DNA of 20,671 nucleotides. Source: Planctomycetota bacterium. GTDB taxonomy: Bacteria; Planctomycetota; GCA-002687715; DRQF01. The stretch is taken from contig JAZGFI010000121.1 of the NCBI GenBank assembly GCA_036479435.1, forward strand, positions 1 through 20,671, written 5' to 3'. A program made the translations under genes and the position numbers. The notes beneath the pieces are model-generated. The model was not told the origin of the DNA. It ran no database searches and worked only from the letters and a program-made list of their open reading frames with translations. Below, piece by piece: positions 4,283 through 20,550 of this stretch; the first letter of the stretch is position 1; each line of letters begins with the position of its first letter.

Positions 4283-4875
4283 TGATCCTCCCGAAGACTC
4301 GAAGGCAGTCCTGGTAGAGTCGAGGACTGGCACGCGTACCGTGCAAAAAGTCAGCCGACATGCAAACCCTTGAGGCTGAATAACCTCCGCCTTACCCTCG
4401 CGGCCAATGAAGAACGCCCCGGGACCCCACCTCATCATCTCCGCCGTCGCAGGATGGATAGATCGCGAGAAGCAAATGGTCTTTGACCACCTCAAAAAGG
4501 AAAACCGAGTTCTCAAAGAACAGCTGGGCACCAAGAAGATCGGCTTGGCCGAGTCCCAACGCCAGCGCCTCGCAGCCAAAGGTCGGTAGATAGGTCACCT
4601 CTCATGATCGGTAACAACGTGGGCATCGACGCGTCCGCACCGCGCCCGACAGAAACGCATGGCCAAGAAATTTCGACGACGGTGCTCGGCGGAGTTCACG
4701 ATCGATATCGCCGCACAACTAAAGCCGAGAATGGCGAACCGCGCGTCTGAGTTCGCACCCGAAGTTCGCTGCGACAGTTCGCCGCCGGCACAGCGACGAC
4801 GGTAAACGACCGACCCGCTTGTTAGAATCGGCTCACGGGCAACCGTGGCCACGTTTGGGGTTTTCAGGAACCACA
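4283..4875 (+). mobile_element. Composite IS3/IS481-like remnant: type-B left-end stub, type-A left end with 5' transposase fragment, type-B 3' fragment and type-B right end
   Basis: L_B tgatcctcccgaagactc (4283-4300); L_A cgtaccgtgcaaaaagtc (4335-4352); ORF 4407-4589 ...LKKENRVLKEQLG...; 3' fragment ...VLGGVHDRY (about 4680-4710); R_B gggttttcaggaaccaca (4858-4875). Confidence 0.85.
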
Positions 4876-4935
4876 AGGGTACAGACGTACTGGCCAACGA
4901 GCACGAGATAGAACCGAACCGAGGAGGCATAGGAC

Positions 4936-6273
4936 ATGCAACACGGACCAACTGCATTAAAGGGCGTAGCGGTGCTCGCTCTGATCTTACTCTTGAGCTC
5001 TTGCGGAGAGCCGAAGCCCACACCCGAGCAACTCGCGGAAGAGGCGTGGCAGACCGCCGTCGCATCTGATTCCATTGACGCCTACGAGCGTTTTGTCGCC
5101 AAACACGGTACCTCAAGTTCCCGCGTTGGCGAAGCCATGACGATCATTGAAGCCCAGCTCTGGGAGCGCGCTTGTCAATCGGATGATACGCCTTCGTATG
5201 ACGCCTTCATCGCCCGGTTCCCTGGGTCTTTGCGCGCGGATGATGCACAGCATCGAAGAGTCGCTTCGGCCTGGCGAAACGTCTCTGGTCGTGGCGACAA
5301 GCTTGCCTTGCTCGCGTTTGCAAAAGCGAACCCCGATTCTGCTTGGGCGGGCGAAGCACGCAACCTCGTTGAGGGTATCGACTACGATGAGGCATTTGCA
5401 ACGCCGGGCCCAGAGCGAATCGAAGCGTTCTTGCAGGATTACCCGGAGACTTCGAAAGCCAACGAGGCTCGGGCCGAGGGAATGCGTCGGCTATGGCAAG
5501 TAGAGATACTGTCGCACGGACCAACGTCGTTCGACGGCGGGCCATTCTTGCCAGGATCAATCACCGTCACCAAGGGCAAGATGTCAGGAGTCATGGTGAA
5601 AATTCGTCGATTGCGAAGTGCTGCGGAAGCGGTGCTGGATCCGAAGACACTTCGGGCTTGGACGGCTACCACGCCTCGCATCCTTGCTGGTGTGTTTCTG
5701 ATCGAACGAACCGGAAAAAGCGAGATCTTCATGGTGGGATCTCCCGCCCTCGGAGACGTCAGATTCGCGGATTCGAAAGCCACCGTTACGATGCTCGAGA
5801 CGTCGCTAGGTTCCGCAGTCTGGTATCTGATCTCGGGCGGAACTTCCATGCATCGTCCCTGCCAGTATCACTCTCAATTCTTGCCGTTCCTCGGCAGCCG
5901 CACCTGCTACTGCTCTGGGCCCTCGGGAAAAGAGTTTATTGATAGCTGCACCAAGATGAACAAGGCATGGGGAGCCTTGGCGTTGTCGCAAGTCATAGAA
6001 CCTAGTGCTGTGGACAGCGAGAGCCCGCTTTTGCCCTCTAAGTTATCGGGAGTGTGGTGGCATCCGTCGATCGCGAACCACAAACCCGAATCGCTGACAA
6101 AAGATGGCTCCCGTTATACGTTCACGGCTAAGGGGGAAAGTCCGCCGGATGATGTGAGTCTCCGACTGAAGCTCGCCCAAGACGACACCGTGACTCTGCT
6201 TTTTCTGTTCCCGGGTGATGCCGCCGAGCTTCGCTCCTGTGAAATCCTTGGCAGGCGGGTCCTCATCGATTGA
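4936..6273 (+). CDS. Predicted lipoprotein (445 aa) with four ~31-aa helical repeats and an unknown C-terminal domain
   Basis: RBS gaggagg/agga; hydrophobic signal peptide ending in lipobox LLSS-C; repeats of pattern W.......AY..F....P.S....EA. Confidence 0.8.
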   Translation: MQHGPTALKGVAVLALILLLSSCGEPKPTPEQLAEEAWQTAVASDSIDAYERFVAKHGTSSSRVGEAMTIIEAQLWERACQSDDTPSYDAFIARFPGSLRADDAQHRRVASAWRNVSGRGDKLALLAFAKANPDSAWAGEARNLVEGIDYDEAFATPGPERIEAFLQDYPETSKANEARAEGMRRLWQVEILSHGPTSFDGGPFLPGSITVTKGKMSGVMVKIRRLRSAAEAVLDPKTLRAWTATTPRILAGVFLIERTGKSEIFMVGSPALGDVRFADSKATVTMLETSLGSAVWYLISGGTSMHRPCQYHSQFLPFLGSRTCYCSGPSGKEFIDSCTKMNKAWGALALSQVIEPSAVDSESPLLPSKLSGVWWHPSIANHKPESLTKDGSRYTFTAKGESPPDDVSLRLKLAQDDTVTLLFLFPGDAAELRSCEILGRRVLID

Positions 6274-6287
6274 CCGCGAGCTGCAAC

Positions 6288-6497
6288 TGCCCTTTTCGAA
6301 AGCTCGAAAGCCATCCCTAACCTCGAGTTACTTGCTTAGGGTTTCAGCCCCAATACGCGCCCGGCCCCTCGTCGAAAACGTGGCTCCAGGGCTGCACGCG
6401 GGATGTGGCGCAACTCGTGACAACTGATCGCCGTGGCCCTCCCACGAGATCGCATCGGAGCGCCTGCTCAAGGTCGGCTGACTTTTTACACACTACG
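6288..6497 (+). mobile_element. 210-bp chimeric miniature element: type-B left end joined to type-A right end
   Basis: L_B tgcccttttcgaaagctc-gaaagccatccctaacc (6288-). Segment 6408-6497 aligns with 12282-12374. R_A gactttttacacactacg (6480-6497) is the reverse complement of the L_A motif. Confidence 0.8.
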
Positions 6498-6593
6498 GGG
6501 AAAAGGAGCTGGTAGACTCGTAAGCAATCGTGTGTTGCACACGACGACATGACCAGGCGCAATCGACCCAGCATTCTACAAATCGGAGATCCA

Positions 6594-8242
6594 ATGAATC
6601 GTCTCCTGATGGCACTCACCGTATTTCAATTCCTTGTCATCATCGCGCTGTCTTACTTGCTCCTGTCTCAGGATACCGAGCCTGAAGTCCTCCCCCCAAA
6701 CCCAGCCCCTGAACACACCGAGGGTGATGCCAAGGAAACGGCGAGACGACATGCAGATTCCAGAGTCGAAAATCAAGTCCTACCCGGCGTAGGAACCTCG
6801 CCTTCTAAAGCGCCTCCCGAGGCAGCGAAATCCGAAGATGCACTTTCTGTGTCCCTGCTTTATGGCGAGGTCACCGCTCCATCGGGAGTCTCTTTGGATC
6901 AAATACGAATCAACGTCTTTGACACGCAGAAGTCAAGGAATGACAGGTCAGGCATCCGCCTCGCGAGCGTGTCCAGCAATGGCTCCTGCTCCATCGCTGG
7001 TCTTGAACCGTCAGTTTGGAGGCTCGTCTGCAAGGTAGAAGGTTGCCTTGAATACAAGACTGAGATCGACCTCACGGTTTCCACGCTCAGGAGAGAGGAC
7101 ATTCTGCTTCAAGAGGCAGTCGTTCTGCTCGTCAAGATCAACACGCCAAGTGGAAAGCCGATCAACAAGTTGCTTCAAACTGAGGCGAGGCCGTGGCCAT
7201 TGTCGTTGACCGTCGTAGCGACCAAGGACCCCATCAAGGGTGACCTACCCATGACTCCGCGCCGAGATCATTCGCGCCTCGGAGATGGAGAATGGTGTTC
7301 AGCGTCAAGTAGCTCTACCAGCGAGAGCCGTTTCCCAAGGGCTACGCGGGTCAGATCGAGCTCAAGACCGCCCTGCCAACAAATCTGAGCCTAGTTTTGC
7401 GCCATGTCGTCCTGCAGTCACGAAGGGTCGAAATTGGCACCAAGGAAGTCGAGTTTGTGGTGTCGCTTGAAGAAGTTCGTTCGAAAGCCTCTTCAGTCTC
7501 GGGACGTGTCTTGAACGCGAACGATGGCGAACCGATCGCAACGGCACGCGTCGGGTTGACTGATCGTCAAACCAGCGGCGGTGGCAAGAAGGTCGAAGTT
7601 GACGGCAGCTTTCACCAAAAAGGTCTTCGAGCCGGGTTAATGGTGCTGACAATTCGAGCGGCCGGATTTCAGGCGATCCACGAGTACGTCCGCCTCATCC
7701 CCGGTAAGACCTTGGACATGGGGACCCTGCGCCTCCACGCAGCGACCAAAATGAGGGGGCGCATTGTGGATGAAGGTGGAAGCGGCGTCGTGTGCCGAGT
7801 GACCGTAAGGAACTTGGACCGGATGAAATTTCCCCAGGAGATAGACTTGGGATGGGCCGTCAAAACCCAGACTGACGGCACCTTCGAGGTAGGCGGCCTC
7901 GGACCAGGGAGACACCTTGTTGTTGCAGAAAAGCGCGGATTCGGAGTTTCGGCCGCCGAGGTCTCACTCGGTCAAGAAGATGCCGACGGAATCGAAATCG
8001 CGCTGCTTCGCGGAACGCAGGTCAGCATCAAGACAAGCGTCCGTTCTTCACCGTTTTTCCTTCTTCAGATCACGGACAACAACGGCAACCCCGTGGTTAG
8101 CAGGTTCATTGGGGGCAACTGGACTTTGGACTTCAACCTGGCACCCGGCAACTACAGTTTGTCCCGGTTTGAAGACATCAAGCTGATCAGCACGAAGAAG
8201 TTCGAAGTCGGTACGACTCCGTTGACAATCAAAGCCGACTAG
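6594..8242 (+). pseudogene. Membrane-anchored carboxypeptidase-regulatory-like (transthyretin-fold repeat) protein split by a -1 frameshift near 7330
   Basis: ATG at 6594 with RBS ggaga; N-terminal TM helix; repeated domains (LLYGEVTAPSG, VSGRVLNANDGEPIATARV, MRGRIVDEGG...DGTFEVGGLGPGRH). The second frame is open from 7313 and reads ...FPKGYAGQIELKTALPTNLSLVLRHVVLQ into ORF 7397-8242. Confidence 0.75.
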
Positions 8243-8256: not shown

Positions 8257-8733
8257 TAAGGTTCCCGAATGCTCGAGAACAGCCCCTACTCACCGGTTAG
8301 CCGCTGAGAGTTTTGACACAACTCCACGCCCGATCTACCACCAACGACTCCGATCCAACAAGATCCGCCCGTGCTCAAACTCCTCGATCGAGCCTTCGCG
8401 CTTCTCGAAGCCGTCGCCACCGACCGAGCGCGACTCGCAATCGTAAATGTGGCCCTACGCCGACAGCTCAACGTTCTCCGAATCCATGCCCTACTAAACC
8501 AACAAGCGAAGCGATCTCGACACCGGTGCTCGGCGGGCTTCACCACCGATATCACCACGCAACCCAAGCCGAGAATGGCCGCACGAAACCCTAATTTCGC
8601 ATCCGAGGTCCGTTGTAACTTTTCGACCAACGCACAGCGACGTCGGTTCGCGACCGACCGGCTTTTTGGAATCCAGAATCAACCTCGATCAAGAGCGACT
8701 AGGAGCCCGTCTTGGGTTTTCGGGAAGACAACA
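8257..8733 (+). mobile_element. Internally deleted type-B IS3/IS481-like element with both ends
   Basis: L_B taaggttcccgaatgctc (8257-8274). 5' transposase fragment DRARLAIVNVALRRQLNVLR (8371-8480) is followed closely by the C-terminal PVLGGLHHRY (about 8523-8555). R_B gggttttcgggaagacaaca (8714-8733). Confidence 0.85.
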
Positions 8734-8831: not shown

Positions 8832-9703
8832 CTACAGCTGGTTCAACAAGACCAACACGTTATCCGAGAAAAGGTTCGCAAGGGCGAGATCGAAAAGGCC
8901 GTCGCCGTTGAGATCACCAATCGCTATTGACCAAGGACTATTGGTCACCGCAAACGACGTGGCCGCTGCGAAGACACCGCCCCCAATTCCAGCAAGACCG
9001 ACACGCCACTCGGGCCTTGGGCAACGGCAAGATCGAGGAGACCGTCGCCGTTGAGATCACCGATCGCCACTGAACGAGGGCGGCCGCCCACAGAAAACAA
9101 CGTGGCCGCTGCGAAGGCACCACCACCGGTCCCCAGCAAGACCGACACGGTATTCGAGGAAGAGTTCGCGACGGCCAGATCGAGAAATCCGTCACCGTTG
9201 AGATCACCAATCGCCACTGAATAAGGGCTATCGACCGCAGCCAAAAATCCTGGAGACAACAGCCTCATTCTTTCGTCGACCGCATCCGTGATGTAGACAT
9301 CCGGACGGTTAGTAAGGAAGGCCGCACCACCGGGCGGAAACACACAAGCTTGGACGGCGATCAACGTTCTCGCCGGCACACCCAGGCCTGGGGTTCCCGA
9401 TATCGTCGCTACGCCGCGGTCGTCAGAGACTGCGCTTATCACCGCGATAACCGAACTTGGCGCGACCAACACAAATGCTCCTGAGGCGAGTTGGATGCTA
9501 CCTGTTTCAGTCGCGATGATGAAATCCACGATTGCATCTGGAACCGTAGTCACTTCGGCCGATAGCAACTCGCCGCCGACTCCGGTCCCCAAGATCTCCA
9601 AAGCTGTCGTGTTGCCGGGTGGCGCTGGGTGGTTGTAGACCTGCGTCCTTGCGCCGATCGCAAGAAAACCGACGAACAAAAAGAAGCTCGCGACGCGCAT
9701 CAT
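8832..9703 (-). pseudogene. Secreted FG-GAP/VCBS repeat protein with a 1-nt deletion near 8990
   Basis: Signal peptide MMRVASFFLFVGFLAIGA with RBS ggag. Three P.S(V/I)AIGDLNGDG..DLA(V/L)A repeats, spaced 147 and 143 nt. Restoring one G gives a third repeat ending ...NVLVLLNQL* (stop at 8832-8834). Confidence 0.8.
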
Positions 9704-9820: not shown

Positions 9821-9962
9821 TGTTGTTCTCGAAAACTCGAAAGCAGTCACCAAACACGGGTTACACGCCTGAGTTTTCGACACCAATCCACACCCAACCT
9901 CCCGTCTCCCGTCAACGCGCTCCGCTTTTGAAGAAGTTGACCGCGCCATCGCCGAACTCGAA
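9821..9962 (+). mobile_element. Type-B left end plus the degenerate start of its transposase
   Basis: tgttgttctcgaaaactc-gaaagcagtcaccaaacacgggttacacgcctgagttttcgacaccaatccac aligns with the sequences starting at 15197 and 16593. Confidence 0.8.
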
Positions 9963-10004
9963 ATTTGGAGTCGTGGCTTAGAAAATGCCCAGAATTCTCC
10001 CGAC

Positions 10005-10251
10005 TGTTAAACGTAGCACCTCTCAAAACAGAGACACTTCAGAGGCCCTTGGGTCGGTCTCAAGAGTACGAGCCGCGACGCTGCGCTGTGCGGGGCGATT
10101 GGCTTTTCTCGCGGGTTCGCGTGGAGGTTCTTCGCGAACGTGACGGGCGTGTGGCCGGTCGTGGAACGAAGAAAACCGTGGGCTTAGCCACGGTTTTCTG
10201 TTCTCAAGTTTGTGTTTGAGAGTTAGCTCCCCAAACCAGACTCCGGTGCAA
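10005..10251. repeat. Type-C repeat, longest copy
   Basis: 10144-10232 is identical to 12405-12493 (89 bp). About 10005-10140 is similar to about 13825-13960. Confidence 0.85.
10170..10199. terminator. Bidirectional intrinsic-terminator-like hairpin
   Basis: agaaaaccgtgg-gcttag-ccacggttttct: perfect 12-bp stem including A/T runs on both arms. Confidence 0.65.
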
Positions 10252-10365
10252 GCAACCTCTGAGCTAAAAAGTGGGATTTCATTCCCCAAGACTATTTTTC
10301 GCCGCCCACAACACCTTGGCGCTGCTCACCTTGCACAAACATAAACCCCTGGTTAATATTCGTGC

Positions 10366-10932
10366 ATGGGTACCACGACACCAGACTGGGATTCCTTGTA
10401 CCAAGTCGCCGCTTCGCAAGACGGCTACTTCACACCTAAACAGTCACAAAAAGCCGGGTATTCCCCCCAGCTTCTCAACAAGTACATCCACAGCGGAAAG
10501 CTTGTGCACATTCGGCGTGGCGTTTACCGCATCATTCATTTCCCCCCCAGTGATCACGAGGACCTGACCGTCATCTGGCTTTGGAGTCATCGCCAAGGCG
10601 TGTTCAGCCATGAAACTGCGCTGGCGCTGCACGAGCTTTCAGACGTACTCCCCAAAAACATCCACTTGACCTTGCCAAGCCATGACTTCAAAAGGCGACT
10701 GCGTGTTCCGTCTGGAGTTGAACTCCACTTTGGTGACATCAGCGGACACCATCGGCAGTGGTTCGGGTGCGTGCCAATCACGTCACCAGCAAAGGCCCTC
10801 AATGACTGTGCCACCGCCTTCGTCTCGCCAGACCTGCTGTTCCAAGCTGTGGCCGAAGGTCGTGCAAGGGGTCTGTTCAGGCCGCAAGAGATCTCTCCAA
10901 CCAGCCGTTACCTCTCGGAGTTTGATGAGTAG
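10366..10932 (+). CDS. abiEi: Type IV toxin-antitoxin antitoxin, AbiEi family (188 aa)
   Basis: N-terminal wHTH QDGYFT...AG...GKLVHIRRGVYR; GVFSHETALALHELSDVLP...IHLT; ITSPAKALND. Lies 5 nt upstream of the AbiEii-like gene. Confidence 0.88.
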   Translation: MGTTTPDWDSLYQVAASQDGYFTPKQSQKAGYSPQLLNKYIHSGKLVHIRRGVYRIIHFPPSDHEDLTVIWLWSHRQGVFSHETALALHELSDVLPKNIHLTLPSHDFKRRLRVPSGVELHFGDISGHHRQWFGCVPITSPAKALNDCATAFVSPDLLFQAVAEGRARGLFRPQEISPTSRYLSEFDE

Positions 10933-10937
10933 CTAAG

Positions 10938-11843
10938 ATGAGCCAGGAATACGCAAGCCCCGCCGCGTTCAAACAGGCGGTCGAGGCTCGACTCAAGGCT
11001 CGATCCATCGCTCTTGGCGTTGATGTTGCAAGAACGCGACAGCTCCTGGTCTTCGACAGATTCCTTTGCCGGCTTTCGGCATGCCTTGGAGATCGTGTCA
11101 TCCTGAAAGGAGGGCTGGCTCTTGAACTTCGGATCGATCGCGCCAGAACCACCAAGGATGTTGATCTTCGAATGTTGGGCAACCCGGATGAAACACTGAG
11201 TGCGCTGCAGGAAGCTGGTAGGATAGACCTCAACGATTTCCTTCGTTTTGAAATCGAGCCCGACCGCCGTAACCCTGACATCAATGCCGATGGCATGCTC
11301 TACGAAGGGCGTCGTTACCGGGCTCACGCCAACCTCGCTGGCAAAATCTACGGAGCTCATTTCGGGGTAGATGTCGCATTCGCCGAACCCATCTCAGGCG
11401 AGATAGAAGAAGTTGAGAGCAGTCGATTCCTGGACTTTGCCGGCCTCTCAACCTCATCGCTGAGGATCTACCCACTTGAAGCACACATTGCCGAAAAACT
11501 TCACGCACTTACGGTCCCGCGGCGAAGCCCAAACTCTCGAGTCAAGGATCTCCCGGATGTCTGCCTGCTGGCAACCAGTCGGCAGATCGACGCCCAGGCA
11601 CTCAGGGATGTAGTCAAGCAGACTTTTGCGTCAAGAGACACCCATCTTGTTCCAATCGCATTACCATCACCGCCAGAAAACTGGAACAAGATCTACGAAC
11701 GAATGGCAGCAAGCAACCACTTGGCTTGGCCAAGTCTCTCCGACGTGATGAAAGCCGCCAGTTCATTCCTGGACCCGGCTTTGGCGGGGATCAATGGCAC
11801 TTGGATTCCAGAACGGTGGGCTTGGCAATCCGTGCAGAAATAG
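10938..11843 (+). CDS. abiEii: Type IV toxin, AbiEii/AbiGii-family nucleotidyltransferase (301 aa)
   Basis: ILKGGLAL...RTTKDVDL, AEKLHA and NSRVKDLPD motifs. Confidence 0.92.
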   Translation: MSQEYASPAAFKQAVEARLKARSIALGVDVARTRQLLVFDRFLCRLSACLGDRVILKGGLALELRIDRARTTKDVDLRMLGNPDETLSALQEAGRIDLNDFLRFEIEPDRRNPDINADGMLYEGRRYRAHANLAGKIYGAHFGVDVAFAEPISGEIEEVESSRFLDFAGLSTSSLRIYPLEAHIAEKLHALTVPRRSPNSRVKDLPDVCLLATSRQIDAQALRDVVKQTFASRDTHLVPIALPSPPENWNKIYERMAASNHLAWPSLSDVMKAASSFLDPALAGINGTWIPERWAWQSVQK

Positions 11844-11868: not shown

Positions 11869-12374
11869 CGTTCCGTGCAAGAACTGAGCCGACCTGTGAA
11901 CCCTTGAGGCCAAACGACCTCCGCCCTGCCCTCTCGACTGATGAAAAACGCCCTCGCGTCCCGCCTTCCCATCATCTCTGCCCTCGCGGGATGGTTAAAC
12001 CGCGAGCAGCTAAGAATCCTCAACTGCCTCAAAGAGGAAAACCAAGTTCTCAAGGAACAGCTCGGCACGAAGAGCCTCCGCTTGACCAACGACCTGCGCC
12101 GCCGCCTCGCCGCCAAGGGTTGGGATATCGGTCGCCGCCTTTTGGGCGAGTACGCGACCGTCGTAATGCCCGACCCCCTACTTCGCTGGCATCGTAAGTT
12201 GATCTCCCAGGAATGGACCAACGCCGCTGGCGGCGGTCGGCCTGGCGCCAACAAGTAGATCGAGGACCTCGGCCTCATATCGGCGCAAACTGTGACGACT
12301 GTTCGCCGGAGGCCCTCCTACGAGATCGCATCCAAACGTCCAAAATGACGTCGGCTGACTTTCTGCACGCTAGG
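11869..12374 (+). mobile_element. Internally deleted type-A IS3/IS481-like element with both ends
   Basis: L_A cgttccgtgcaagaactg-agccgac (11869-). ORF 11941-12258 ...LKEENQVLKEQLG...PDPLLRWHRKLI...GRPG. R_A gactttctgcacgctagg (12357-12374). Confidence 0.88.
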
Positions 12375-12389
12375 GCCTCGCGCAATGAG

Positions 12390-12512
12390 TCTTCGCGAAC
12401 TTGGCGGGCGTGTGGCCGGTCGTGGAACGAAGAAAACCGTGGGCTTAGCCACGGTTTTCTGTTCTCAAGTTTGTGTTTGAGAGTTAGCTCCCCGAACAAG
12501 ACTCCAGTGCAA
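12390..12512. repeat. Type-C repeat, second copy, with hairpin at 12431-12460
   Basis: 89-bp exact identity to 10144-10232, plus similar flanks (tcttcgcgaac; gactccrgtgcaa). Confidence 0.88.
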
Positions 12513-12702
12513 ACGAGCATTGACCGCCGGCGAAACGACCCATCTTACTGCGAGTCCCGTCGACAGAATCCGAAATCGTCGTGCCAGCGGCCGCTGTGGA
12601 CATATTTCGCGGGACGGGGGAAACACAGCCAATCCTTGGCAATCGGGTCGAATCGGGTGTTATCGGGTATCCCCTGGGCCGACAATTGAAAATGAGGTCA
12701 GA

Positions 12703-13824: not shown

Positions 13825-14057
13825 GTGGTCAACGCGGCCTCGCCAAACTGAGACGCAGCAGAGACTCTCGGGTTGGCCTCGAAAGCTCGAGCCGCGACGT
13901 CGCGCCGTGCGGGGCGATCAACTTTCTCGGGGCGCGGTTCGCGTAAAGCTTCTTGGCGAACCGCGCCTGGCGTCTGATCACAAGCTGCCAAGGCAGAATC
14001 GAGTCGACACCCGACGACGAGTGACTAAGAACGCGTTTGGGGTTTTCGGCAACAACA
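13825..14057 (+). mobile_element. Partial type-C repeat fused to a type-B right end
   Basis: About 13845-13960 aligns with 10027-10140 (gagccgcgacg...gtgcggggcgat...cgcggttcgcgt). 13994-14057 aligns with 8674-8733. R_B gggttttcggcaacaaca (14040-14057). Confidence 0.75.
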
Positions 14058-14091: not shown

Positions 14092-15012
14092 TTAGGCGAA
14101 TGAATGCCACTTGCTGCTGAACCAACGCCCCGGTTGATGTTCAAAGCGCTGCTTGGCTCGCGGGGAATACCCGGCGTAGTAGGGGAAACATCGCGCCGGG
14201 CAAAAATGTGTCACGAGGCTCTTGCGGGTGGAGTTCGCCAAGGTGATAGGGCTGCCGCCGTGAACCAATTCAGCGTGCCAAAAGAACAAGTCACCTTTTC
14301 GGGCGAGGAAACGTTCTTCTCTAAGTCCTTTTCGTTCACATTGCATGACGAGGTGATTGAGGAATTGTTGATGAGATGCGTCGCCGTCTTTTTTGCGATT
14401 CCAACTGCGTCGCTTGCCATCAAACAAGAATTCCTCGATGCGATGACTGCCGGGCATGTACCGGAGTTCGCCACTTCCTCTTTTTACGTCTTCGAGGGCG
14501 AGCCAACTCGCTACGAACTCCAGCGGCGAATTAACGACGACGTAGGCCGTGTCTTGGTGGAGGTCTTGCACAGACCCTTGGTTGAATGACAAGCCCTGGA
14601 AGGCGAGGGCATCTCCTTCAAAGAGTTCGGTCAAAAACGTCGCCGCTGTTGCCGAAAAAGTCGCTTTTCGAGCGGCCGGTGAATGTGCGTACAGGTCAAG
14701 AAGCTTGTCACCCGGCTGCAGTTCTTGGGAACCCACCTCAAAAGTTATACCTCCCCTTTCGATGAGGCCCGGTGACCCTGGCCGCAGCATGCTGGACATG
14801 TCTTGGAGCACATCGTCACAATCGGCGTGGGATACGGCGTTGGGAAAGCACACGAATCCCTGTTCGCGCCAAGATTGCAGCCAAGGCAACGGCCGGTTCT
14901 GGTTGAGGCTTGATGAGTTTTTGCGATCGGGCCACAGGCCCCCGAAACGGCTGACGAACCCGGGTCGCAGCCGCTCCAAGTCGCGCTTAAGTTGCCAGCG
15001 TTGCAACCACAT
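14092..15012 (-). CDS. Phytanoyl-CoA dioxygenase (PhyH)-family Fe(II)/2-oxoglutarate dioxygenase (306 aa)
   Basis: HQD iron motif, SWLALEDV...SGELRYMPGSHR, KGDLFFWHAELVHGG and RKSLVTH. Confidence 0.9.
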   Translation of the reverse strand: MWLQRWQLKRDLERLRPGFVSRFGGLWPDRKNSSSLNQNRPLPWLQSWREQGFVCFPNAVSHADCDDVLQDMSSMLRPGSPGLIERGGITFEVGSQELQPGDKLLDLYAHSPAARKATFSATAATFLTELFEGDALAFQGLSFNQGSVQDLHQDTAYVVVNSPLEFVASWLALEDVKRGSGELRYMPGSHRIEEFLFDGKRRSWNRKKDGDASHQQFLNHLVMQCERKGLREERFLARKGDLFFWHAELVHGGSPITLANSTRKSLVTHFCPARCFPYYAGYSPRAKQRFEHQPGRWFSSKWHSFA

Positions 15013-15196: not shown

Positions 15197-15582
15197 TGAT
15201 CTTCCCGAAAACTCGAGAGCTGTCCCTGATCACGGTTTACACCCTGATATTTCGACACCAATCCACGCTCCATCTCCCGTCAACGACTGTGATCCAACAA
15301 GACGCGCCTAAGCTCAAGATCCTCTCCAAAGCACTTGCGCTTCTCGAAGCCATCGCCGCCGCCGACCGTGCCCGACTCGCAATCGAGAGTGTGGCCCTAC
15401 GTCAGCTGCTCAACGTTCTCCGACCTAGCGTCTTTCGCGCCAACTTTAGCGACAACGACCGCACGTTCTGGGTCCTTCTCTGCAGCCTCTTTGAAAACTG
15501 GAACGATCATTTAGTCATCGTGAAGCCCGAGACGGTCTTCGCCTGGCGCCGCAAGGGCTTTGCCTACCATTGGAAACGAAAG
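15197..15582 (+). mobile_element. Type-B left end plus 5' transposase fragment (no right end)
   Basis: L_B tgatcttcccgaaaactc (15197-15214); DRARLAIESVALRQLLNVLR...DRTFWVLL...LVIVKPETVFAWRRKGFAYHWKRK. Confidence 0.88.
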
Positions 15583-15615
15583 GCCTGTGTGCTTGGACAG
15601 CTCCGCTGGATACAT

Positions 15616-16545
15616 TCACTCTTCGGAGGTCGAGACTTGACAGACGTAATGTAGGCCGCCGCGAATTGTAGCCACCTGGGCATCAATGCAAATCTCGTCC
15701 GTGGCCCTCGGGCTGTCTGGGTAGACCTCGGTGGTCGTGACGAATCTCGCGTTTGTCGCTCCCATGCAAAGGCCGAGAGGACCGGCGTCGTAGTTGATCA
15801 CACCCTCTTGCTCAAGCGGCTCGCCGATAATCTCTCCGTTGATTCCAGGAGCAATGTGAGTCACCTGCTTGACCGATTCGATGATGGCTTTCTGGAATTC
15901 AGGAACAGGTCTAGCGCGGTCGCCGACCGCGTAGAATCCGTCCGGAATCTCCCAGATATCGTGTTGGACCGCATCACGAGCCGCGAGCGCCGGCCTAAAT
16001 TCGCTATTGTCGGTGTCCGTCGTTTCGTGGAGGTCGAAGTGCGCCACGAAGTCGATCTCTGAGATTTCGAGATACCGAATTACGGCCGCCGCTTCTTCAG
16101 ACGGACTGTCCACTTTGAACGATCGATTGGGGTCCACGGACCTGGGATTCCAGCGATTAATCGTCTCATACCCCCAGGGACTCACGCATGGCATGACCAT
16201 GAAGTTGAACTGCTCGGCCAGGTTGTGTGCTTCGACTTGCAAAAAGCGGATCGCGCCCTGGACACCGCTCGTCTCGTAGCCGTGGACGCCGCCCGTGATG
16301 AATACCGAAGGGCGGCTCGGCTCCCAGCTGCGCGACTTCAGGACGAAAAGAGGATAGCGCGCAGGATCGATCGACAACTCGCCGTGAGCCACGACCTCAT
16401 AGTCGGATCGCATTGCGTCGATCTTCGCGACGACCTCGTCGGCATAGCTGCGCTTGACCGACTGTGCGGCGAGCCAGGCGGCCATCTCGTCATTGCCCCA
16501 CGGTGAGCCAAGAGTGCCAATGTGGTAGCGGTCATTCGACTTCAT
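15616..16545 (-). CDS. M14-family zinc metallocarboxypeptidase (succinylglutamate desuccinylase/aspartoacylase-like; 309 aa)
   Basis: GGVHGYE (HxxE), NRWN...DPNRSF, DLHE and TTTEVYPD motifs. Start taken at 16545 (MKSNDRY) because the longer ORF begins inside an IS end. Confidence 0.9.
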   Translation of the reverse strand: MKSNDRYHIGTLGSPWGNDEMAAWLAAQSVKRSYADEVVAKIDAMRSDYEVVAHGELSIDPARYPLFVLKSRSWEPSRPSVFITGGVHGYETSGVQGAIRFLQVEAHNLAEQFNFMVMPCVSPWGYETINRWNPRSVDPNRSFKVDSPSEEAAAVIRYLEISEIDFVAHFDLHETTDTDNSEFRPALAARDAVQHDIWEIPDGFYAVGDRARPVPEFQKAIIESVKQVTHIAPGINGEIIGEPLEQEGVINYDAGPLGLCMGATNARFVTTTEVYPDSPRATDEICIDAQVATIRGGLHYVCQVSTSEE

Positions 16546-16592: not shown

Positions 16593-16839
16593 TGCGGTTC
16601 CCGAAAACTCGAGATCCATCCCCAATCACGAGTTACACGGCTGAGTTTTCGACACTAATCGCCACCCTACCTCCCGTCAACGATCGTGATCGGACAAGAT
16701 GCGCGCATGCTCAATGTCCATCGCGACTTTTCGATCTACACGCAGCATCGTCGAATCACGATCAACCGGCTTGTTAGAATCCAAATTCGAACTCGTCAAC
16801 GATCGATTGGGAACTCGCTTTGAGTTTTCGGGAACCAAA
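16593..16839 (+). mobile_element. 247-bp type-B MITE-like element
   Basis: Ends tgcggttcccgaaaactc (16593-16610) and gagttttcgggaaccaaa (16822-16839) contain a perfect 15-bp inverted repeat. The transposase ORF is deleted just after its start. Confidence 0.88.
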
Positions 16840-16842: not shown

Positions 16843-17451
16843 ATGAAATATCTCCACGTTCCGGCCTCCGAACTACCGATACCCGACGACGTGTCGCGCC
16901 TCATCGACGATGCGAGCGCTCGAATCGACAACTTCGTCGCGACCCGTATTGACAACCCTCTCCCCGCGTTCGTTCCCTGCGAATTCACTGCTGTGTATCG
17001 GGTGCTGCGGTCGCTGGCGGCGTCCATGCAGGGAGGCTGCTTCGTCGAATGGGGGGCCGGCTTCGGCGTGGTGGCGACTCTGGCGGCGAAGCTCGGGTTC
17101 GATGCGGGGGGCATCGAGATCCAGCCCGAGCTCGTGGATGCAGCGATTGATCTCGCGACTGACCATGGAGCCAACGTGGCTTTTGCCTGCGGGAGCTTCG
17201 TCCCGCACGATGCGCAAGATCTGATCGACCAAACCGAGTGGCCGAGCTGGCTCGAGGCCGGCGGGCACGATGGTCATGACGAGATAGAGGTCGATCCACG
17301 AGACATCGACCTCGTCTTTGCTTTCCCCTGGCCGGGAGAGTCCCACGTCATCGAGTCCATTTTCGAGCGGGTTTGCTCTCCGGGCGCGCGACTCTTGACC
17401 TGGGGCAGCATCGACGGAGCCTGTTTGGCCCAACTGGGGCATCGGGAATAG
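16843..17451 (+). CDS. Class I SAM-dependent methyltransferase-like protein (202 aa)
   Basis: Motif I FVEWGAGFG, GIEIQPELV, FACGSF and DLVFAFPWPGE. The ATG at 16843 is just outside the MITE. Confidence 0.85.
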   Translation: MKYLHVPASELPIPDDVSRLIDDASARIDNFVATRIDNPLPAFVPCEFTAVYRVLRSLAASMQGGCFVEWGAGFGVVATLAAKLGFDAGGIEIQPELVDAAIDLATDHGANVAFACGSFVPHDAQDLIDQTEWPSWLEAGGHDGHDEIEVDPRDIDLVFAFPWPGESHVIESIFERVCSPGARLLTWGSIDGACLAQLGHRE

Positions 17452-17896: not shown

Positions 17897-18128
17897 GAGG
17901 AGAGCAAGGATCACTACAGAGTTCTCGAAGGCCATGATTTCGAGCGACATCACCATGGCATTGCCAACGAGCTCATCGATCCGAATACGAAGCCGGTCGA
18001 CGAAGAAGTCGTCCGCGACGAGCGGCTCATTCTATCGTCGCGCTGCCTGAAGTCATCGTTGCCGTTGCCCTCCCAATAGATCGCATCGGGACGCCCAATT
18101 GATGTCGGCTAACTTCTCACGCGATAGC
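17897..18128 (+). mobile_element. Type-A 3' transposase fragment plus degenerate right end
   Basis: ERHHHGIANELIDP...EVVRDERL resembles the ERNHQGL.N.LI...RERLGG C-terminus of this transposase type. agatcgcatcggg...gtcggctaacttctcac aligns with 6447-6497 and 12323-12374. Confidence 0.7.
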
Positions 18129-18171
18129 CATAGCCTTACGTTGCCAGCCGAAGTATCGCCGAGTCAATCCC

Positions 18172-19692
18172 TCACTTTTCGACATTCGAACGCAACATCT
18201 GGTACTGCCAGCCAAAGCTCCCTGAGACCTCCTGTGGGCCCCAAATTCGGTCAGGATTCATGGTGTTGCGCAACTTCAAGCGATACACCCAAACCTCTCC
18301 ATTCTTCTTGAGCATAGCCGCGTCCGCGTTCAAATAGCGGTAAGTCCCGTACTCGACGAGATTCTCCACGATTCGCGCTTCCTGCTTGACTTTGAAGCCG
18401 CCCCTGACCTGCAACTTCAGCAAGGTCTGGTTCGAGTAGTGCGCGATGATGGTCTTGCGCGCGAGCTTTTCCAGCTCTTGGTTCTCAAAGATCTGCTTGG
18501 GGAACCGAGCGCTCTCAATTTCGGCCTTCAGCCGCTTCGCAAGCTCCGCCTCGTACTCGACCTTGGACATCCTCTTGGCCTCTTCAAGCGCACGCTTCTC
18601 TTCGGCCTCACGCTCCTTTTCGGCGATCGCGTAGGCCGCGGCCAGCGCCGGAGTCTCCTTTGCGAGAACATCGCAGGTCTCGACTTCCGCGCAGAGCGCG
18701 AGGAACTGATCAGACTTGCGGTTAATGATGCTGCCGTAACTGCTTTCGAGTCGCCCCTGGAGCTTCTTGGCCGTTGCGACCGCAAGCTTTGCACCGTCGA
18801 CGAGGTCACTGGTCATGGCTCTCGTAGAGTGGATCTTGCGGACCTTCTCGGTCTCCATCAGGATCGTGCAGATTGCGCGATCTACGGACCGACGATTGGG
18901 ATTGCTGGCGGGAACGATGGACTGCGCATCGCCATAGCCGGTATTCTTTGTACCGTCCTCCTTCGTTCCGCCTCCATCCACTTTGGTTTTGTAAAACTCT
19001 CTCAGCGTCGCTTCCGATGCCTTGAGCCGGGTCTTGGCCGCTGCCCAATCGGGGTGCGCGGGATCGAACTTGCCAGAGTAATCACGCTCCCCTTTCGAAA
19101 GTGCTTTCGCAGCTTCCGCCATCTGCCCCTTGGCGACTTTCCATGCCCCGAGCTTCACTTTGCCAGCCCGCGCCAGCGTCTTGTCAAACTGATCGAGCGA
19201 CTCGCTGGCCTTTTTGAGAGAGTGCCCCACACCACCAGTCAGCTTGGCTGGTTTGCCCCCGCCGCTCGCGGGCTTCTCCACCTCGACCTTGGGCTTCTTC
19301 TTTTCTCCGCCAGTGGCACGCGCTTCGAATGCTGTCCCATCAGCCTGTGCTTTCTTGAGGCGTGCGCAGACAGCTACCCAATCAGAGTGCGCGGCGTCAA
19401 ACCGGCTACTGTAGAGGTTGGTGATCGTTTTGTGAGTCTCCTCTGCTTGCGAAAGCTTATCCTTCGCTTTCGTCCAGGTGCCCTTCAAGTCGGATTCTGG
19501 CGCCACGATAAGGGCCTCGAATTGAGTCAAGGTCTCGTTGATGCCGCCTACGAGCCTGCCCACTTTCCCCGAGAGCGGCGTGACCTCTTGCGCCGCGGGT
19601 GGAAGCGCAAGTGAAGGCGATTCTGCCACCGCGCCCCAAGCCTGGGAGAGCAAAGTGATTCCGGAAAAAAAGAAGATGATGATCTGTCTCAT
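18172..19692 (-). CDS. Secreted hypothetical protein (506 aa) with two ~85-aa helical repeats and a coiled coil
   Basis: Signal peptide MRQIIIFFFSGITLLSQAWG-A. Duplicated unit L(S/T)G.VG......E(T/S)L.QF...G.W..AK.....A.......YS.(R/K)FD.AH.DW.A...RLK. Confidence 0.78.
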   Translation of the reverse strand: MRQIIIFFFSGITLLSQAWGAVAESPSLALPPAAQEVTPLSGKVGRLVGGINETLTQFEALIVAPESDLKGTWTKAKDKLSQAEETHKTITNLYSSRFDAAHSDWVAVCARLKKAQADGTAFEARATGGEKKKPKVEVEKPASGGGKPAKLTGGVGHSLKKASESLDQFDKTLARAGKVKLGAWKVAKGQMAEAAKALSKGERDYSGKFDPAHPDWAAAKTRLKASEATLREFYKTKVDGGGTKEDGTKNTGYGDAQSIVPASNPNRRSVDRAICTILMETEKVRKIHSTRAMTSDLVDGAKLAVATAKKLQGRLESSYGSIINRKSDQFLALCAEVETCDVLAKETPALAAAYAIAEKEREAEEKRALEEAKRMSKVEYEAELAKRLKAEIESARFPKQIFENQELEKLARKTIIAHYSNQTLLKLQVRGGFKVKQEARIVENLVEYGTYRYLNADAAMLKKNGEVWVYRLKLRNTMNPDRIWGPQEVSGSFGWQYQMLRSNVEK

Positions 19693-19847
19693 GTGGCAAC
19701 TCGAAAAAAATGTTGAAAAGCGGTAAACGCGAAACGGCAGCCAAGCGTCGCGCGCTGGCATCAAGAATTCTCGGAGAGGTCAATTTTCGTGAAGATGAAT
19801 GCTCAACCAAGCAAATGTGAATGACGATGCTTCCGCTAAGCCTTGAT

Positions 19848-19955
19848 CGTACCGTGCGAAAAGTCAGCCGATTTGTAAACCCTTGCGGCTAAACGACCTT
19901 CGCCCAGCCCTCTCGGCCCAAGAAAAACGGTCTGACGCCCCAGCTCCCCATCACC
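19848..19955 (+). mobile_element. Type-A left-end stub
   Basis: cgtaccgtgcgaaaagtcagccgatttgtaaacccttgcggctaaacgaccttcgcccagccctctcggcc aligns with the sequences starting at 4335, 11869 and 19975. Confidence 0.85.
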
Positions 19956-19974
19956 ATCAACATCATTTCACACC

Positions 19975-20550
19975 CGCACCGTGCAAAAAATCAGCCGACC
20001 CATAAGACCTTGAGGCTGAACGACCTCCGCCCTACCCTCTCGGCCCATGAGGCACGCCCTCACGCTCCGCTTCCTCATCTCCTCTGCCCTCGCAGGCTGC
20101 CTAAATCGCGAGCAGCAATCAGTCCTCGATGACCTCAAGGAGGAAAACCGAGTTCTAAAGGAACAGCTCGGCACCAAGAAACTCCGCTTAACTGACGCTC
20201 AACGCCGTCGCTTCGCCGCCAAGGGCTGGGAGATCGGTCGCCGCCTTCTTGGCGAGTACGCGACCATCGTAACCCCGGACACCCTTCTCCGCTGGCATCG
20301 AAAGTTGATCTCCAAGAAGTGGACCAACGCCGCTGGCGGCGGTCGGCCTGGCGTCCTCAAGAAGATCGAGGAACTCGTCGTTCAAATGTCGCAGGACAAT
20401 CCGAGCTGGGGCTACCGACGAATCCAAGGTGCGCTCAAAAAACTCGGCCACGTCGTCGTGCACATTACTGTCAAGCGAATCCTTGTTAATCATGGCATCG
20501 AGCCCGCACCGGAACGCGGCAAGAAAACCACCTGGTCTCAATTTCGATGA
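19975..20550 (+). mobile_element. Type-A left end plus 5' half of the transposase (ORF 20047-20550), stopping before the rve/DDE core
   Basis: L_A cgcaccgtgcaaaaaatc; LKEENRVLKEQLG...VTPDTLLRWHRKLI...DNPSWGYRRIQGALKKLG...GIEPAPER...TTWSQFR* (IS3-like WGYRRI HTH). Confidence 0.88.

Follow-up and report, generated by a model that had tools for sequence, protein, structure and literature searches.

Direct arrays of insertion sequences (ISs) have been studied in depth for IS26 and related elements, since resistance regions of clinical bacteria are assembled by them. In the arrays described for IS26, IS257 and IS1216 (IS6 family), direct IS copies stand between units of one to a few genes, there are no target duplications, and insertion takes place beside a resident copy (PMC4196232, PMC7885326, PMC6952201). 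Other published behaviours also give one-directional stacks. IS30 and IS911 insert by a copy-out/paste-in DDE pathway at a resident end in one strict orientation, and the head-to-tail junctions are described as reactive, with deletions starting there (PMC9333248). For IS3 and IS481, a lagging-strand tendency is described in a survey that reports no orientation-biased IS families in phyla other than Proteobacteria, Actinobacteria and Firmicutes (Gomez et al. 2014, PMC3971601). DDE elements of the IS1202 family that target xrs sites are described as lying at a fixed distance and orientation from the module border (bioRxiv 10.1101/2022.12.17.520857).

The window analysed here (20,671 nt) is an entire contig (C121) of an uncultured planctomycete whose genome comprises 5.47 Mb in 299 contigs. 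It is a chromosomal accessory-gene island in which ends of two related ISs of ~1.3 kb each, A and B, lie between almost all genes and point in a single direction. As in IS26 arrays, A/B copies are directly oriented between gene units and target duplications were not seen; unlike the identical copies of IS26-type arrays, those of A and B are old, diverged and gutted. The array is, moreover, chromosomal, belongs to an environmental planctomycete and carries no resistance genes. ISCR/IS91 arrays also consist of same-direction copies, each with different neighbouring cargo, but those are HUH rolling-circle elements with one exact and one ragged end, whereas A and B are DDE elements with defined inverted repeats at both ends.

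Element ends and the genes between them

Ends were recovered by repeat finding, blastn against the genome and nhmmer with full-length copies. All 17 ends listed in a sequence-only reading of this DNA are present. Left ends of A (L_A) start at 4335/6, 11869/70, 19848/9 and 19975-7, and left ends of B (L_B) at 6288-93, 8257-62, 9821-26, 15197-202 and 16593-98. Right ends of A (R_A) terminate at 6499, 12375 and 18126-8, and right ends of B (R_B) at 4875, 8726-33 and 16839. The two weak ends, an L_B stub at 4283 and an R_B end at 14057, are known by eye in end alignments alone. The claimed common polarity also held, with 16/16 non-overlapping A/B fragments in the window on the + strand in a profile search. 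Repeat finding gave three inverted pairs in the window, of which I2 and I3 are terminal inverted repeats of the elements themselves and I1 is a hairpin. The array and its borders are as follows.

1519..4251, - strand: IS21-family element (istB 1659-2408, istA 2421-4076), the array's left border
4283..4334, + strand: L_B stub, 52 nt; first ~30 nt match L_B by eye, missed by nhmmer; complete L_A directly 3'
4335..4638, + strand: L_A, A 1-303; nhmmer E 7e-83, 75-81% identity to other copies
4622..4875, + strand: R_B, B 1029-1291; nhmmer E 7e-59, terminus seen in alignment
4936..6273, + strand: passenger 1, ORF for a 445-aa lipoprotein-like orphan; starts 60 nt past R_B, stops 14 nt before L_B
6288..6375, + strand: L_B, B 1-83; nhmmer E 7e-7, repeat families D4 and D6
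6399..6499, + strand: R_A, A 1217-1320; nhmmer E 2e-27; inverted-repeat partner of the L_A end at 4335-4359 (pair I3, 25 nt, 88%)
6549..8242, + strand: passenger 2, a pair of neighbouring ORFs that differ in frame (279 aa, 281 aa); CarboxypepD_reg, Pfam 6.6e-18
8257..8733, + strand: internally deleted B, L_B 1-219 joined to R_B 1040-1286; nhmmer E 8e-59 and 3e-67
8945..9703, - strand: passenger 3, FG-GAP repeat protein; Pfam FG-GAP_3 2.2e-18; putative start at the signal-peptide Met
9821..10272, + strand: variant L_B (~90 nt of B followed by other sequence) that leads into complete repC; nhmmer E 1.5e-28, alignments
10366..11843, + strand: passenger 4, AbiEi/AbiEii type IV toxin-antitoxin pair; Pfam AbiEi_4 9e-10, AbiEii 3.6e-29
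11869..12375, + strand: internally deleted A, L_A 1-404 joined to R_A 1222-1319; nhmmer E 1.7e-124 and 1.3e-24
12378..12514, + strand: 3' half of repC, abutting R_A; 96% identity to 10129-10251 by blastn, alignment
12703..13749, + strand: passenger 5, Fic/DOC protein with C-terminal winged helix; Pfam Fic 2.7e-15, HTH_24; putative internal-Met start
13838..14057, + strand: 5' half of repC, continuous with an R_B terminus; blastn, alignment, terminus by eye
14092..15012, - strand: passenger 6, PhyH-family dioxygenase; Pfam PhyH 6.3e-18
15197..15592, + strand: L_B 1-379 without right end; nhmmer E 3e-110
15616..16545, - strand: passenger 7, M14-like zinc carboxypeptidase; Pfam Peptidase_M14 1.9e-7; putative start
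16593..16839, + strand: internally deleted B of 247 nt, L_B 1-120 joined to R_B 1164-1290; nhmmer, inverted pair I2 (32 nt)
16843..17451, + strand: passenger 8, methyltransferase-like ORF; putative ATG 4 nt past the R_B end, weak PrmA-like NCBIfam match
17903..18128, + strand: R_A fragments, A 972-1146 and 1251-1316; nhmmer E 5e-33 and 1.7e-8
18172..19692, - strand: passenger 9, ORF for a secreted protein that matches no known family, 506 aa long, or 530 aa if read from the first start codon
19848..19955, + strand: L_A stub, A 1-107; nhmmer E 5e-26; next L_A 19 nt on
19975..20545, + strand: L_A, A 2 to ~570; nhmmer E 8e-190; 167-aa N-terminal transposase ORF, cut by another element
20546..20671, strand not assigned: first 126 nt of another high-copy element, where the contig stops; five other contigs end in a 100% identical sequence

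The bordering IS21-family element (Pfam IstB_IS21 1.8e-65, rve and Mu-transpos_C_2; NCBIfam transpos_IS21 230 bits, cut-off 160) truncates a DUF4403 gene (924-1517), and its end at 4207-4251 recurs 18 times in the genome by blastn, mainly at contig ends. The order of the array, for which a risk of misassembly had been raised, was upheld by Logan data, in which sequencing runs of three studies had been assembled independently into k=31 contigs (depth ~75x, 16x and 9x). They cover 4220-8542, 8527-10173, 10203-12243, 12468-17545/17797 and 17784-20180 with 0-1 differences and even depth, leaving three short gaps (10173-10203, 12243-12468, 17545-17784) and spanning nearly all junctions. The array is identical across the three studies and is therefore not a misassembly.

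The remnants were correctly described as catalytically dead: a Pfam scan found no rve/DDE domain in any of them, and the 167-aa ORF matches HTH_21 and HTH_32 only. The intact transposase that the sequence-only reading proposed to look for was located on C245, where a full-length B (1165-2476) retains a 342-aa ORF. Full-length copies of A (C103:217185-218516 and C276:1364-2690) are both frameshifted. The B ORF contains rve_3, HTH_32 and HTH_21, and the A ORF rve_3, so that the DDE rve-type core is present. B scores 99.8 bits with the NCBIfam IS3 model (cut-off 160) and 85.1 with IS481 (cut-off 224), and A scores 100.9 with IS481 and 83.3 with IS3. IS3 and IS481 are thus the nearest families, as the label "IS3/IS481-like" implied, but both elements fall below the curated cut-offs, and their rve/DDE transposases are unclassified. 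An IS6 model is absent from the NCBIfam matches of A and B, and plasmid homologues are annotated only as "integrase core domain-containing protein". The IS3 and IS481 families are marked by TG...CA inverted repeats at their termini and by short target duplications. B is bounded by TGTnnTTCCCGAAAAC ... GTTTTCGGGAACCACA, and A by 25-nt inverted repeats. No target-site duplications were seen around any window unit or any full-length copy. Copies of A and B are just 70-89% alike (blastn).

The ORF list and Pfam bear out nine passenger units in both orientations, five on the + and four on the - strand, lying 4-211 bases from the nearest A/B end. Four were rightly said to sit between ends of the same type: the lipoprotein, FG-GAP and PhyH genes (R_B/L_B) and the gene for the 506/530-aa protein (R_A/L_A). 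The further description of most passengers as whole and tightly bounded stands for the borders, but some genes near A/B are incomplete: a full-length A on C276 leaves just 108 aa of an AbiEii gene, and the window FG-GAP gene is shorter than its 478-aa paralogue on C135 (73% nt identity). Passengers 1 and 9 have no Pfam or NCBIfam match; outside its own genome, passenger 1 gave weak matches in 2/301 phylum genomes searched. As a set, the nine units are accessory genes of ordinary kinds, namely toxin-antitoxin, Fic, secreted-protein and orphan genes.

Homologues in relatives share little more than the gene. The Fic gene has 78% nt identity to genes in G006 and G008, and homology to the G006 locus comprises 12598-13764 only; the AbiE pair resembles the G002 copy over 10315-11846, and the M14 homologues in G002 and G004 share the gene alone (15633-16567). 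In these cases homology ends 17-84 nt from the gene and contexts differ; the G002 and G006 homologues also adjoin diverged multi-copy repeats. A search for the same passenger with the same borders a second time, in the own genome and the relatives searched, found none, and none of 30 relatives searched by DNA has two passengers side by side. Gene order kept in remnant-free relatives, which had been named as a way to refute the idea of modules, was likewise not found among these 30.

The layout recalls integrons and pdif/xrs modules, with one or few genes per interval and toxin-antitoxin and secreted cargo, and this part of the proposed comparison stands. Integrons are marked by an intI tyrosine recombinase gene with attI beside the array, by attC sites where cassettes meet, and by cassettes that mostly share an orientation. 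No phage-integrase-type (tyrosine recombinase) match was found in the 20 window ORFs scanned with Pfam, and no conserved site or motif was seen beside left ends in the end alignment. The repeats are not attC or 28-nt Xer sites but IS ends (nhmmer E down to 1e-190), and cargo orientation is mixed; the likeness to integrons and pdif modules is confined to layout.

Polarity and nesting within and beyond the window

Orientation within contigs was not random, and the view that the pattern is not random IS decay gained support from absolute polarity in the window, in other contigs of the genome and in arrays of other genera. Within the genome, all seven contigs with at least two A/B fragments are strand-uniform (C121, C9, C17, C180, C245, C253, C276). 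At a second locus, contigs C147-C276-C253-C84, linked by 127-nt overlaps, carry in order R_B and R_A; MBOAT-AlgX; an L_A stub and a full B; AbiEi-AbiEii'; a full A; an ORF; and repC. All elements there point one way, and the locus is a younger stage of such an array. The third repeat, repC (~280 nt with a strong hairpin; 9990-10272, 12378-12514 and 13838-13976 in the window), is co-oriented with A/B on all 6 contigs that bear it. The L_B-repC junction at 9821..10272 is common to the window and C9, which hints at one small non-autonomous family; repC is probably the core of a B-derived element unable to move alone.

Among the matches listed for B-type copies (at least 44% identity) in Planctomycetota, 9/9 contigs with at least two separate copies are strand-uniform (G000:C245, G004:C3, G099:C3, G099:C30, G123:C3, G287:C22, G113:C319, G054:C5, G126:C2). 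Direct versus inverted repeat pairs in those regions number 30/2, 20/0, 15/0, 30/0, 7/1 and 2/0, counts that include some pairs inside genes or between paralogous genes rather than IS ends. On G123:C3, two copies of a more distant A-like type (33% identity to B) are interspersed among the B-type copies but run on the opposite strand. Polarity there is therefore type-specific, as would be expected of self-targeting or of routes driven by homology more than of a replication bias common to both types. In the wider clade polarity is not strict: a complete Bradyrhizobium plasmid has 12 B-transposase matches (43-57% identity), spread over 3-372 kb, that split 8 to 4 by strand.

The sense strand of the elements is the C-rich strand at 16/20 loci, with 3 against and 1 at zero. 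The own skew of the elements is strong (A -0.123, B -0.147) and was masked in their own genome alone, so the link is inflated for relatives. The lagging-strand tendency described for IS3/IS481 (PMC3971601) is statistical, whereas polarity within the planctomycete loci is absolute.

About 13/13 nested or stacked junctions are same-direction, and about 9/13 lie no more than ~150 nt from a resident end. Same-direction junctions include B(1-52)|A1, A(1-53)|B1, A(1-107)|A1 and A(13-599)|B1, and further R_B|B571, R_B|A827, R_A|B1078 and B end|A1214. Behind right termini in G099 stand the last 10, 11, 45 or ~140 nt of another right end. Overall, insertions are 6-150 nt inside resident ends, not beside them. 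An intact right end directly against a left end was not found, the nearest pair being 186 nt apart (C245). Complete ends adjoin interior positions of other A/B copies, which indicates true transposition into IS copies and not just IS-by-IS recombination; such joints are the expected residue of ordinary nested transposition followed by deletion. Breakpoints of the B deletions vary per copy (left 83, 120, 194, 219 and 379; right 1029, 1040 and 1164), so the stubs arose independently and are not one amplified MITE.

Origin of the array

With a probability of about 0.5, we infer that A, B and repC hit the island repeatedly, inserting at or close to resident ends with a bias in orientation, and that copies afterwards lost internal segments; the one-directional pattern probably reflects how the elements insert rather than a new gene-cassette system. 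A and B would be of the copy-out/paste-in type, with new copies landing in, beside or close to resident ends. Their single direction could come from orientation-specific end-targeting, from a replication-linked bias under which the sense strand of the transposase comes to lie on the lagging, C-rich strand, or from both. Same-direction landing would build head-to-tail stacks. Later deletions, for which reactive junctions between ends or recombination of direct repeats could be the driver, would strip out the transposase genes, so that left and right ends, solo or stacked, stay behind flush with the genes kept by selection.

The same-direction stacks and the joints of complete ends against interiors fit the IS30/IS911 pathway. 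End-targeting of that type yields junctions in which just a few bp separate a right end from a left end. Here, by contrast, intact right and left ends do not abut, and A and B nest mutually despite different end sequences. Moreover, end-targeting alone does not account for ends between genes 1-4 kb apart.

The sequence-only reading had proposed mobile "right end-gene-left end" modules moved by a DDE transposase in trans. We found nothing in support of this: unit borders do not repeat, breakpoints differ, passenger orientation is mixed, and the array is the same in all three studies. In established DDE chemistry, a gene is not marked out for excision by ends that face away from it. The Logan contigs contain no circles or empty-site joints, every joint being explained by a paralogous locus of the same genome; assembled contigs, on which this search was run, drop rare forms.

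An unlikely alternative that still deserves weight is accretion as in IS26 arrays, in which IS-plus-gene circles or IS-bounded segments integrate at a resident IS of the same type and the copies later decay. Through transposase or homologous (Campbell-type) recombination, direct repeats would then flank each unit and the array would grow unit by unit. The same-type flanks of four passengers, the unseen target duplications, the abrupt end of M14, Fic and AbiE homology in differing surroundings, the repeats beside the G002 and G006 homologues and the type-specific polarity in G123 all agree with it, and the diversity of the stubs could mean that units came from different donors. Nevertheless, no passenger recurs with its borders in the genomes searched, the contig data hold no circle or empty-site joint, and the array does not vary among studies. 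Complete ends against copy interiors speak for true transposition, A and B are not IS6-family elements, and some borders are of mixed type (L_B/R_A at 6288-6499, L_A/R_B at 4335-4875). The bolder proposal that this unclassified rve clade is a chromosomal gene-accretion device of Planctomycetota, integrating IS-bounded single-gene units at resident ends with locked direction, is speculative and distinctly improbable. If true, it would be a functional counterpart of IS26 arrays and integrons run by a different DDE family, stacking orphan, defence and secreted-protein genes over long times into polar arrays whose worn ends remain as recombination or regulatory sites.

It is also doubtful that the island is simply a dispensable region where ISs purged elsewhere pile up, with direction set by a general replication-linked bias and no end-targeting. 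The GC-skew link, the orphan or accessory cargo, the other IS types in the window (IS21 and two further IS ends) and the tendency described for IS3 and IS481 (PMC3971601) are in line with this. However, a statistical tendency does not predict 100% polarity per contig, nor does it predict that insertions are in excess close to resident ends (within ~150 nt) or that the A-like type in G123 is on the opposite strand.

MITE-type insertion into intergenic spacers of a fixed ancestral gene order is quite improbable. Left and right ends are mostly adjacent (8257-8733, 11869-12375, 16593-16839), and two-sided gaps add up to plausible spacer lengths (e.g., 14 + 49 nt). A MITE family, however, would share structure, length and a target duplication, whereas breakpoints differ in every internally deleted copy, duplications were not seen, several units are A/B hybrids or one-ended, and no relative searched has any two passengers adjacent. 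Least credible of all is a chimera joined across repeats: the draft is fragmented and many contigs terminate inside IS copies, but the three-study contigs bridge nearly all junctions and A/B copies are too diverged for collapse.

The arrays in Planctomycetota chromosomes

End-targeting by IS30 and IS911 and the lagging-strand tendency of IS3 and IS481 are already published. New here are the full-length A and B copies, the co-oriented repC, the contigs of uniform strand, the same-direction nesting near ends and the GC-skew link. An architecture similar to that of IS26 arrays has come from a different, unclassified DDE group on environmental Planctomycetota chromosomes, where the arrays persisted long enough for copies to diverge by 10-30%. 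The intact B copy (C245:1279-2307) is a concrete reagent for testing. If polarity stems from end-targeting, this behaviour would extend beyond IS30 and IS911 and would explain the organisation of flexible islands in the phylum. If it stems from replication, the arrays would be an unusually strict case of a bias reported, in the survey cited above, as a tendency and not in Planctomycetota. Either way, they mark collection sites of lineage-specific orphan and defence genes.

Architecture of the array

The architecture of the array is real, non-random and recurrent. In contig C121, at its full 20,671 bases part of a 5.47-Mb draft genome in 299 contigs, nine gene units (passengers) alternate with fragments of A and B, two related insertion sequences, from position 4283 to the contig end. 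Every left and right end (L_A, L_B, R_A, R_B) listed in the sequence-only reading was recovered by repeat finding, blastn and nhmmer; the two weakest, at 4283 (a 52-nt stub) and 14057 (a right end), are visible in end alignments only. The single polarity described there also held up. All 16 non-overlapping A/B fragments in the window lie on the + strand, and the only inverted pairs returned by window repeat finding are the A/B terminal repeats and one hairpin. By Pfam, the fragments lack a catalytic domain, and by blastn they share 70-89% identity with other copies. Conservation in L_B is somewhat higher over the first 30 nt than over the 60 that follow (mean pairwise identity 0.74-0.84 vs 0.65-0.75). 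Neither Rfam at E up to 0.1 nor a tRNA search revealed RNA genes in the window. The passengers are of the following kinds:

lipoprotein-like orphan
two CarboxypepD_reg ORFs
FG-GAP protein
AbiEi/AbiEii pair
Fic protein
PhyH dioxygenase
M14-like peptidase
methyltransferase-like ORF
secreted 506-aa protein

The distances from element end to nearest start or stop codon, obtained by sequence reading with starts inferred at a signal-peptide or internal Met, are 60+14, 49+14, 211+118, 93+25 and 188+88 nt for the first five passengers and 34+184, 23+48, 4+20 and 43+156 nt for the last four.

Misassembly across the repeats, raised earlier as a way in which the array could be spurious, is ruled out, and its probability as an explanation is negligible. 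Logan contigs, assembled from public sequencing runs of three studies, span 4220-8542, 8527-10173, 10203-12243, 12468-17545 or 12468-17797, and 17784-20180. They differ from C121 at 0-1 positions, with even depth of ~75x, ~16x and ~9x; two of the runs are possibly the source of the assembly, and the third study is independent. Eight joints in these contigs were considered as circles or deletions and rejected, as each has a counterpart at another locus of the genome. The joint of 4388 to 16598, for example, with TGTCC between, is the junction of A(1-53) with B on C253. Being contigs, such data are blind to rare circles or variants and carry no weight against circles.

Several other repeats were observed in the window. 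Two more high-copy elements are represented by their ends, at 17472-17590 (eight matching places, mostly contig ends) and 20546-20671 (100% identity with five other contig ends); the elements themselves are absent from the assembly, probably because contigs shorter than 2 kb were dropped. Just inside the end of an IS21-family element, a 29-nt unit occurs in four direct copies at 4062-4184; these are probably binding sites for the transposase, which IS21 elements typically carry as multiple repeats at their ends. An ORF at 200-598 contains a 159-nt coding unit twice in tandem. The FG-GAP gene contains repeated units of 143-147 nt (8844-9274) and is much shorter than its 478-aa C135 paralogue. 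An 80-nt repeat (76% identity) forming a GC-rich hairpin lies directly after the Fic stop codon (13675-13758) and directly before an R_A fragment (17822-17900).

Elements A, B and repC and their distribution

Longer copies of A and B, and a third co-oriented repeat, repC, were located as follows:

C245:1165-2476, full-length B, 1.3 kb, intact 342-aa ORF at 1279-2307 with HTH_32, HTH_21 and rve_3
C276/C253 junction, second full B copy, straddling the junction
C103:217185-218516 and C276:1364-2690, full-length A, both disrupted by frameshifts or stops
9990-10272, 12378-12514 and 13838-13976 in the window, repC, ~280 nt
C9, C36, C176:3474-3687, C276:55-265 and the end of C147, repC elsewhere in the genome

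The transposases of A and B score under the curated NCBIfam cut-offs for the IS3 and IS481 models, and their plasmid homologues are annotated merely as 'integrase core domain-containing protein'; we therefore term both elements IS3/IS481-like and unclassified. The repC repeat has a hairpin with a perfect 12-bp stem, followed by a second small hairpin, and on each contig bearing it always runs in the A/B direction. Its copies are up to 96% alike and better conserved than the A/B stubs. Among 31 genomes searched by DNA it is confined to its own, and it matched no described RNA in Rfam at E up to 0.1. On an otherwise housekeeping contig, one copy is found between accD and a HEAT-repeat gene. The window and C9 share an L_B end (~90 nt) followed by other sequence leading to repC, and a short R_B end comes after repC on C9 and at 13838-14057. 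These arrangements suggest that repC is probably the core of a B-derived element unable to move alone. On C9, the A/B/repC cluster is flanked by a 2500-aa RHS-repeat protein (2313-9815) and a 1481-aa protein of no known family (15388-19833).

A/B fragments occur on 15 contigs of the genome, and all seven contigs with two or more fragments are strand-uniform. Exact 127-base overlaps join C147, C276, C253 and C84 into another island, smaller than the first and set between large chromosomal contigs. In the direction of the elements, its units are R_B and R_A; MBOAT-AlgX; a 53-nt L_A stub with a full B; AbiEi with an AbiEii cut to 108 aa; a full A; an ORF; and repC. The same process seems to be at a younger stage in this island, and its truncated AbiEii shows that A is able to interrupt a gene. 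Other A/B-bearing contigs carry island-type cargo (RHS, PRiA4_ORF3, BrnT, ParB-methylase, T5orf172).

A similar array is present in another genus (G004:C3, 105-141 kb), with all B-like matches on the - strand and 30 of 32 repeat pairs direct. A protein search found the B transposase in 86 of 301 phylum genomes, with 50 further matches beyond those listed. Among the matches listed, all nine contigs with two or more separate B-type copies are strand-uniform, B-type meaning 44% identity or more and G099:C56, G237:C113 and G002:C83 being omitted because the pair in each is two pieces of one broken copy. Direct and inverted repeat pairs in five fetched B-type regions numbered 20/0, 15/0, 30/0, 7/1 and 2/0, the direct pairs being partly intragenic repeats or paralogous genes rather than IS ends; G126:C2 had no repeat pairs. 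Three observations argue against a simple polarity rule. In G123:C3, the B-type copies are interspersed with two of a more distant type (33% identity to B, nearer A) that sit on the other strand; the 30-37% identity class has mixed strands in G279:C1 and G213:C4 among the matches listed; and on a complete Bradyrhizobium plasmid 12 dispersed matches divide 8 vs 4 between strands. A scan of the genome contig collection with the 15-base B left-end motif returned 119 stretches in unrelated phyla, the chance level for a word that short.

Passengers and their relatives

Homologues of Fic, AbiE and M14 in family relatives share 70-78% nucleotide identity with the passengers. The homology is restricted to the gene (Fic vs G006, 12598-13764; AbiE vs G002, 10315-11846; M14 vs G002/G004, 15633-16567), and the homology blocks nearly fill the inter-repeat intervals. 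The surroundings of the homologues differ, even between G002 and G004. In G002 and G006 they also adjoin diverged multi-copy repeats, one of which, in G006, is a 66-nt piece with a match immediately upstream of a B-like transposase gene; in G004 a short repeat with >100 copies lies beside the homologue. The lipoprotein is a near-orphan, with two weak matches besides its own genome among 301 phylum genomes, and most ORFs of the G004 array have no homologue in the genome studied here. Taken together, these features indicate that each passenger acts as a separate accessory unit within flexible, IS-rich regions. As to the G004 repeat itself (171941-172400 of the array contig and >100 other places), its 50-70-nt cores are 93-98% identical and often locally tandem, and the M14 homologue has a copy 58 nt away.

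The expectation that a passenger would recur with the same borders was not borne out, as no unit was found twice. Two candidates for shared cargo were rejected: the 530-aa proteins of the window and G004 are unrelated, and AbiEi of the window is only 26% identical to that of C276. DNA matches of the methyltransferase-like ORF in relatives were likewise discarded as orthologues, since they are short and the matching G004 ORF has no protein match in our genome. Synteny tests on the lipoprotein, the methyltransferase-like ORF and the G004 cargo give an ancestral gene order neither support nor refutation. Identity to reference copies has too poor a resolution to assign a shared lineage to the left and right ends around a passenger.

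Junctions and the origin of the polar stacks

Wherever element meets element, one contributes a complete end that lies directly against internal sequence of the other, and both point the same way; no opposite-direction junction was seen among those examined. On the left side, these junctions are B(1-52) with A, A(1-53) with B, A(1-107) with A and A(13-599) with B. On the right side, they are R_B with B(571...), R_B with A(827...), R_A with B(1078...) on C245 and C9, and a B end with A(1214...). The two sets are the two halves expected of same-direction insertion of a copy into a copy. Right termini in G099 run into the last 10, 11, 45 or ~140 nt of another right end, and a left end there is preceded by a 6-7-nt left terminus. 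About 9 of 13 junctions fall within ~150 nt of a resident end, compared with ~20% expected for random positions in a 1.3-kb element, a figure that ascertainment may inflate. Intact right-left end abutments were not found. By eye, no target duplications were apparent at any window unit, both full-length copies of the genome or four G099 copies; flanks of the examined copies are in some cases inversely symmetrical, or contain short additional copies of the element's termini. The full-length B on C245 is bordered (980-1164, 2477-2510) by an inverted duplication of ~35 nt of the A right-end region, and G099 copies are bordered by small inverted pieces of their own termini. Such pieces may indicate that the target is palindromic or resembles an end. 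Targeting of Xer sites, known from the IS1202 subgroup, was rejected as no conserved motif lies upstream of left ends.

The sense strands of A and B are both C-rich (skew -0.123 and -0.147). With A/B masked, the sense strand lies on the C-rich strand of the surroundings at 8 of 10 loci of the genome, with C287 against, as is C176, where the match is only 35 nt. Unmasked, 8 of 10 loci in relatives fit as well (G002:C74 is against, G126:C2 zero). If GC skew is a guide to the direction of replication, transcription of the transposase would run against the fork. This orientation matches the lagging-strand tendency that PMC3971601 reports for IS3, IS6, IS30, IS481 and ISNCYb; that paper reports no orientation-biased family outside three phyla. 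On C103 (225 kb), the skew changes from + to - at about 100-120 kb, a candidate replication origin or terminus.

We favor, at a probability of about 0.5, a route in two steps: new copies would insert at or close to resident ends with a bias in orientation, and deletions would follow, triggered by the resulting junctions and starting at an end. A replication-linked bias would act together with end-targeting. End-targeted insertion is likened to the targeted transposition of IS911, with the resulting junctions setting off end-starting deletions (PMC9333248). Combined, end-targeting and replication-linked bias would account for polarity, stacking, joints of complete end to interior, and solo ends. 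End-targeting alone leaves ends between genes 1-4 kb apart unexplained.

The main rival, possible yet rather doubtful, is IS26-like accretion, in which circles or segments made of a single IS copy and genes are inserted at a resident copy, either by the transposase or through homologous recombination (PMC4196232 and PMC7885326). Direct repeats follow automatically from this route, as do the same-type flanks pointed out in the sequence-only reading. The gene-sized homology blocks are consistent with it, as is the type-specific polarity in G123, but its moving unit was not seen in the Logan contigs, which cannot reveal rare forms. The module proposed earlier, 'right end-gene-left end', cannot be cut out by known DDE chemistry because the ends face away from the gene. 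The IS26-type unit is 'IS plus gene', and in a head-to-tail array such as this the phase of the unit is indistinguishable. A plain junkyard of elements oriented by a general replication bias is an unlikely account. MITE insertion into a fixed gene order is very improbable, and copies of one MITE are ruled out by internal-deletion breakpoints that differ in every gutted copy.

The comparison with integrons and pdif modules holds for layout and for nothing beyond it, and the array is not a demonstrated new cassette system. We found no paper describing such arrays in Planctomycetota; the literature searched gave only analogues. With end-targeted, orientation-biased insertion as the preferred origin, the array is best filed as a variant of known IS behavior, in which an unclassified clade of rve transposases produces polar stacks that persist for long in the islands of planctomycetes.
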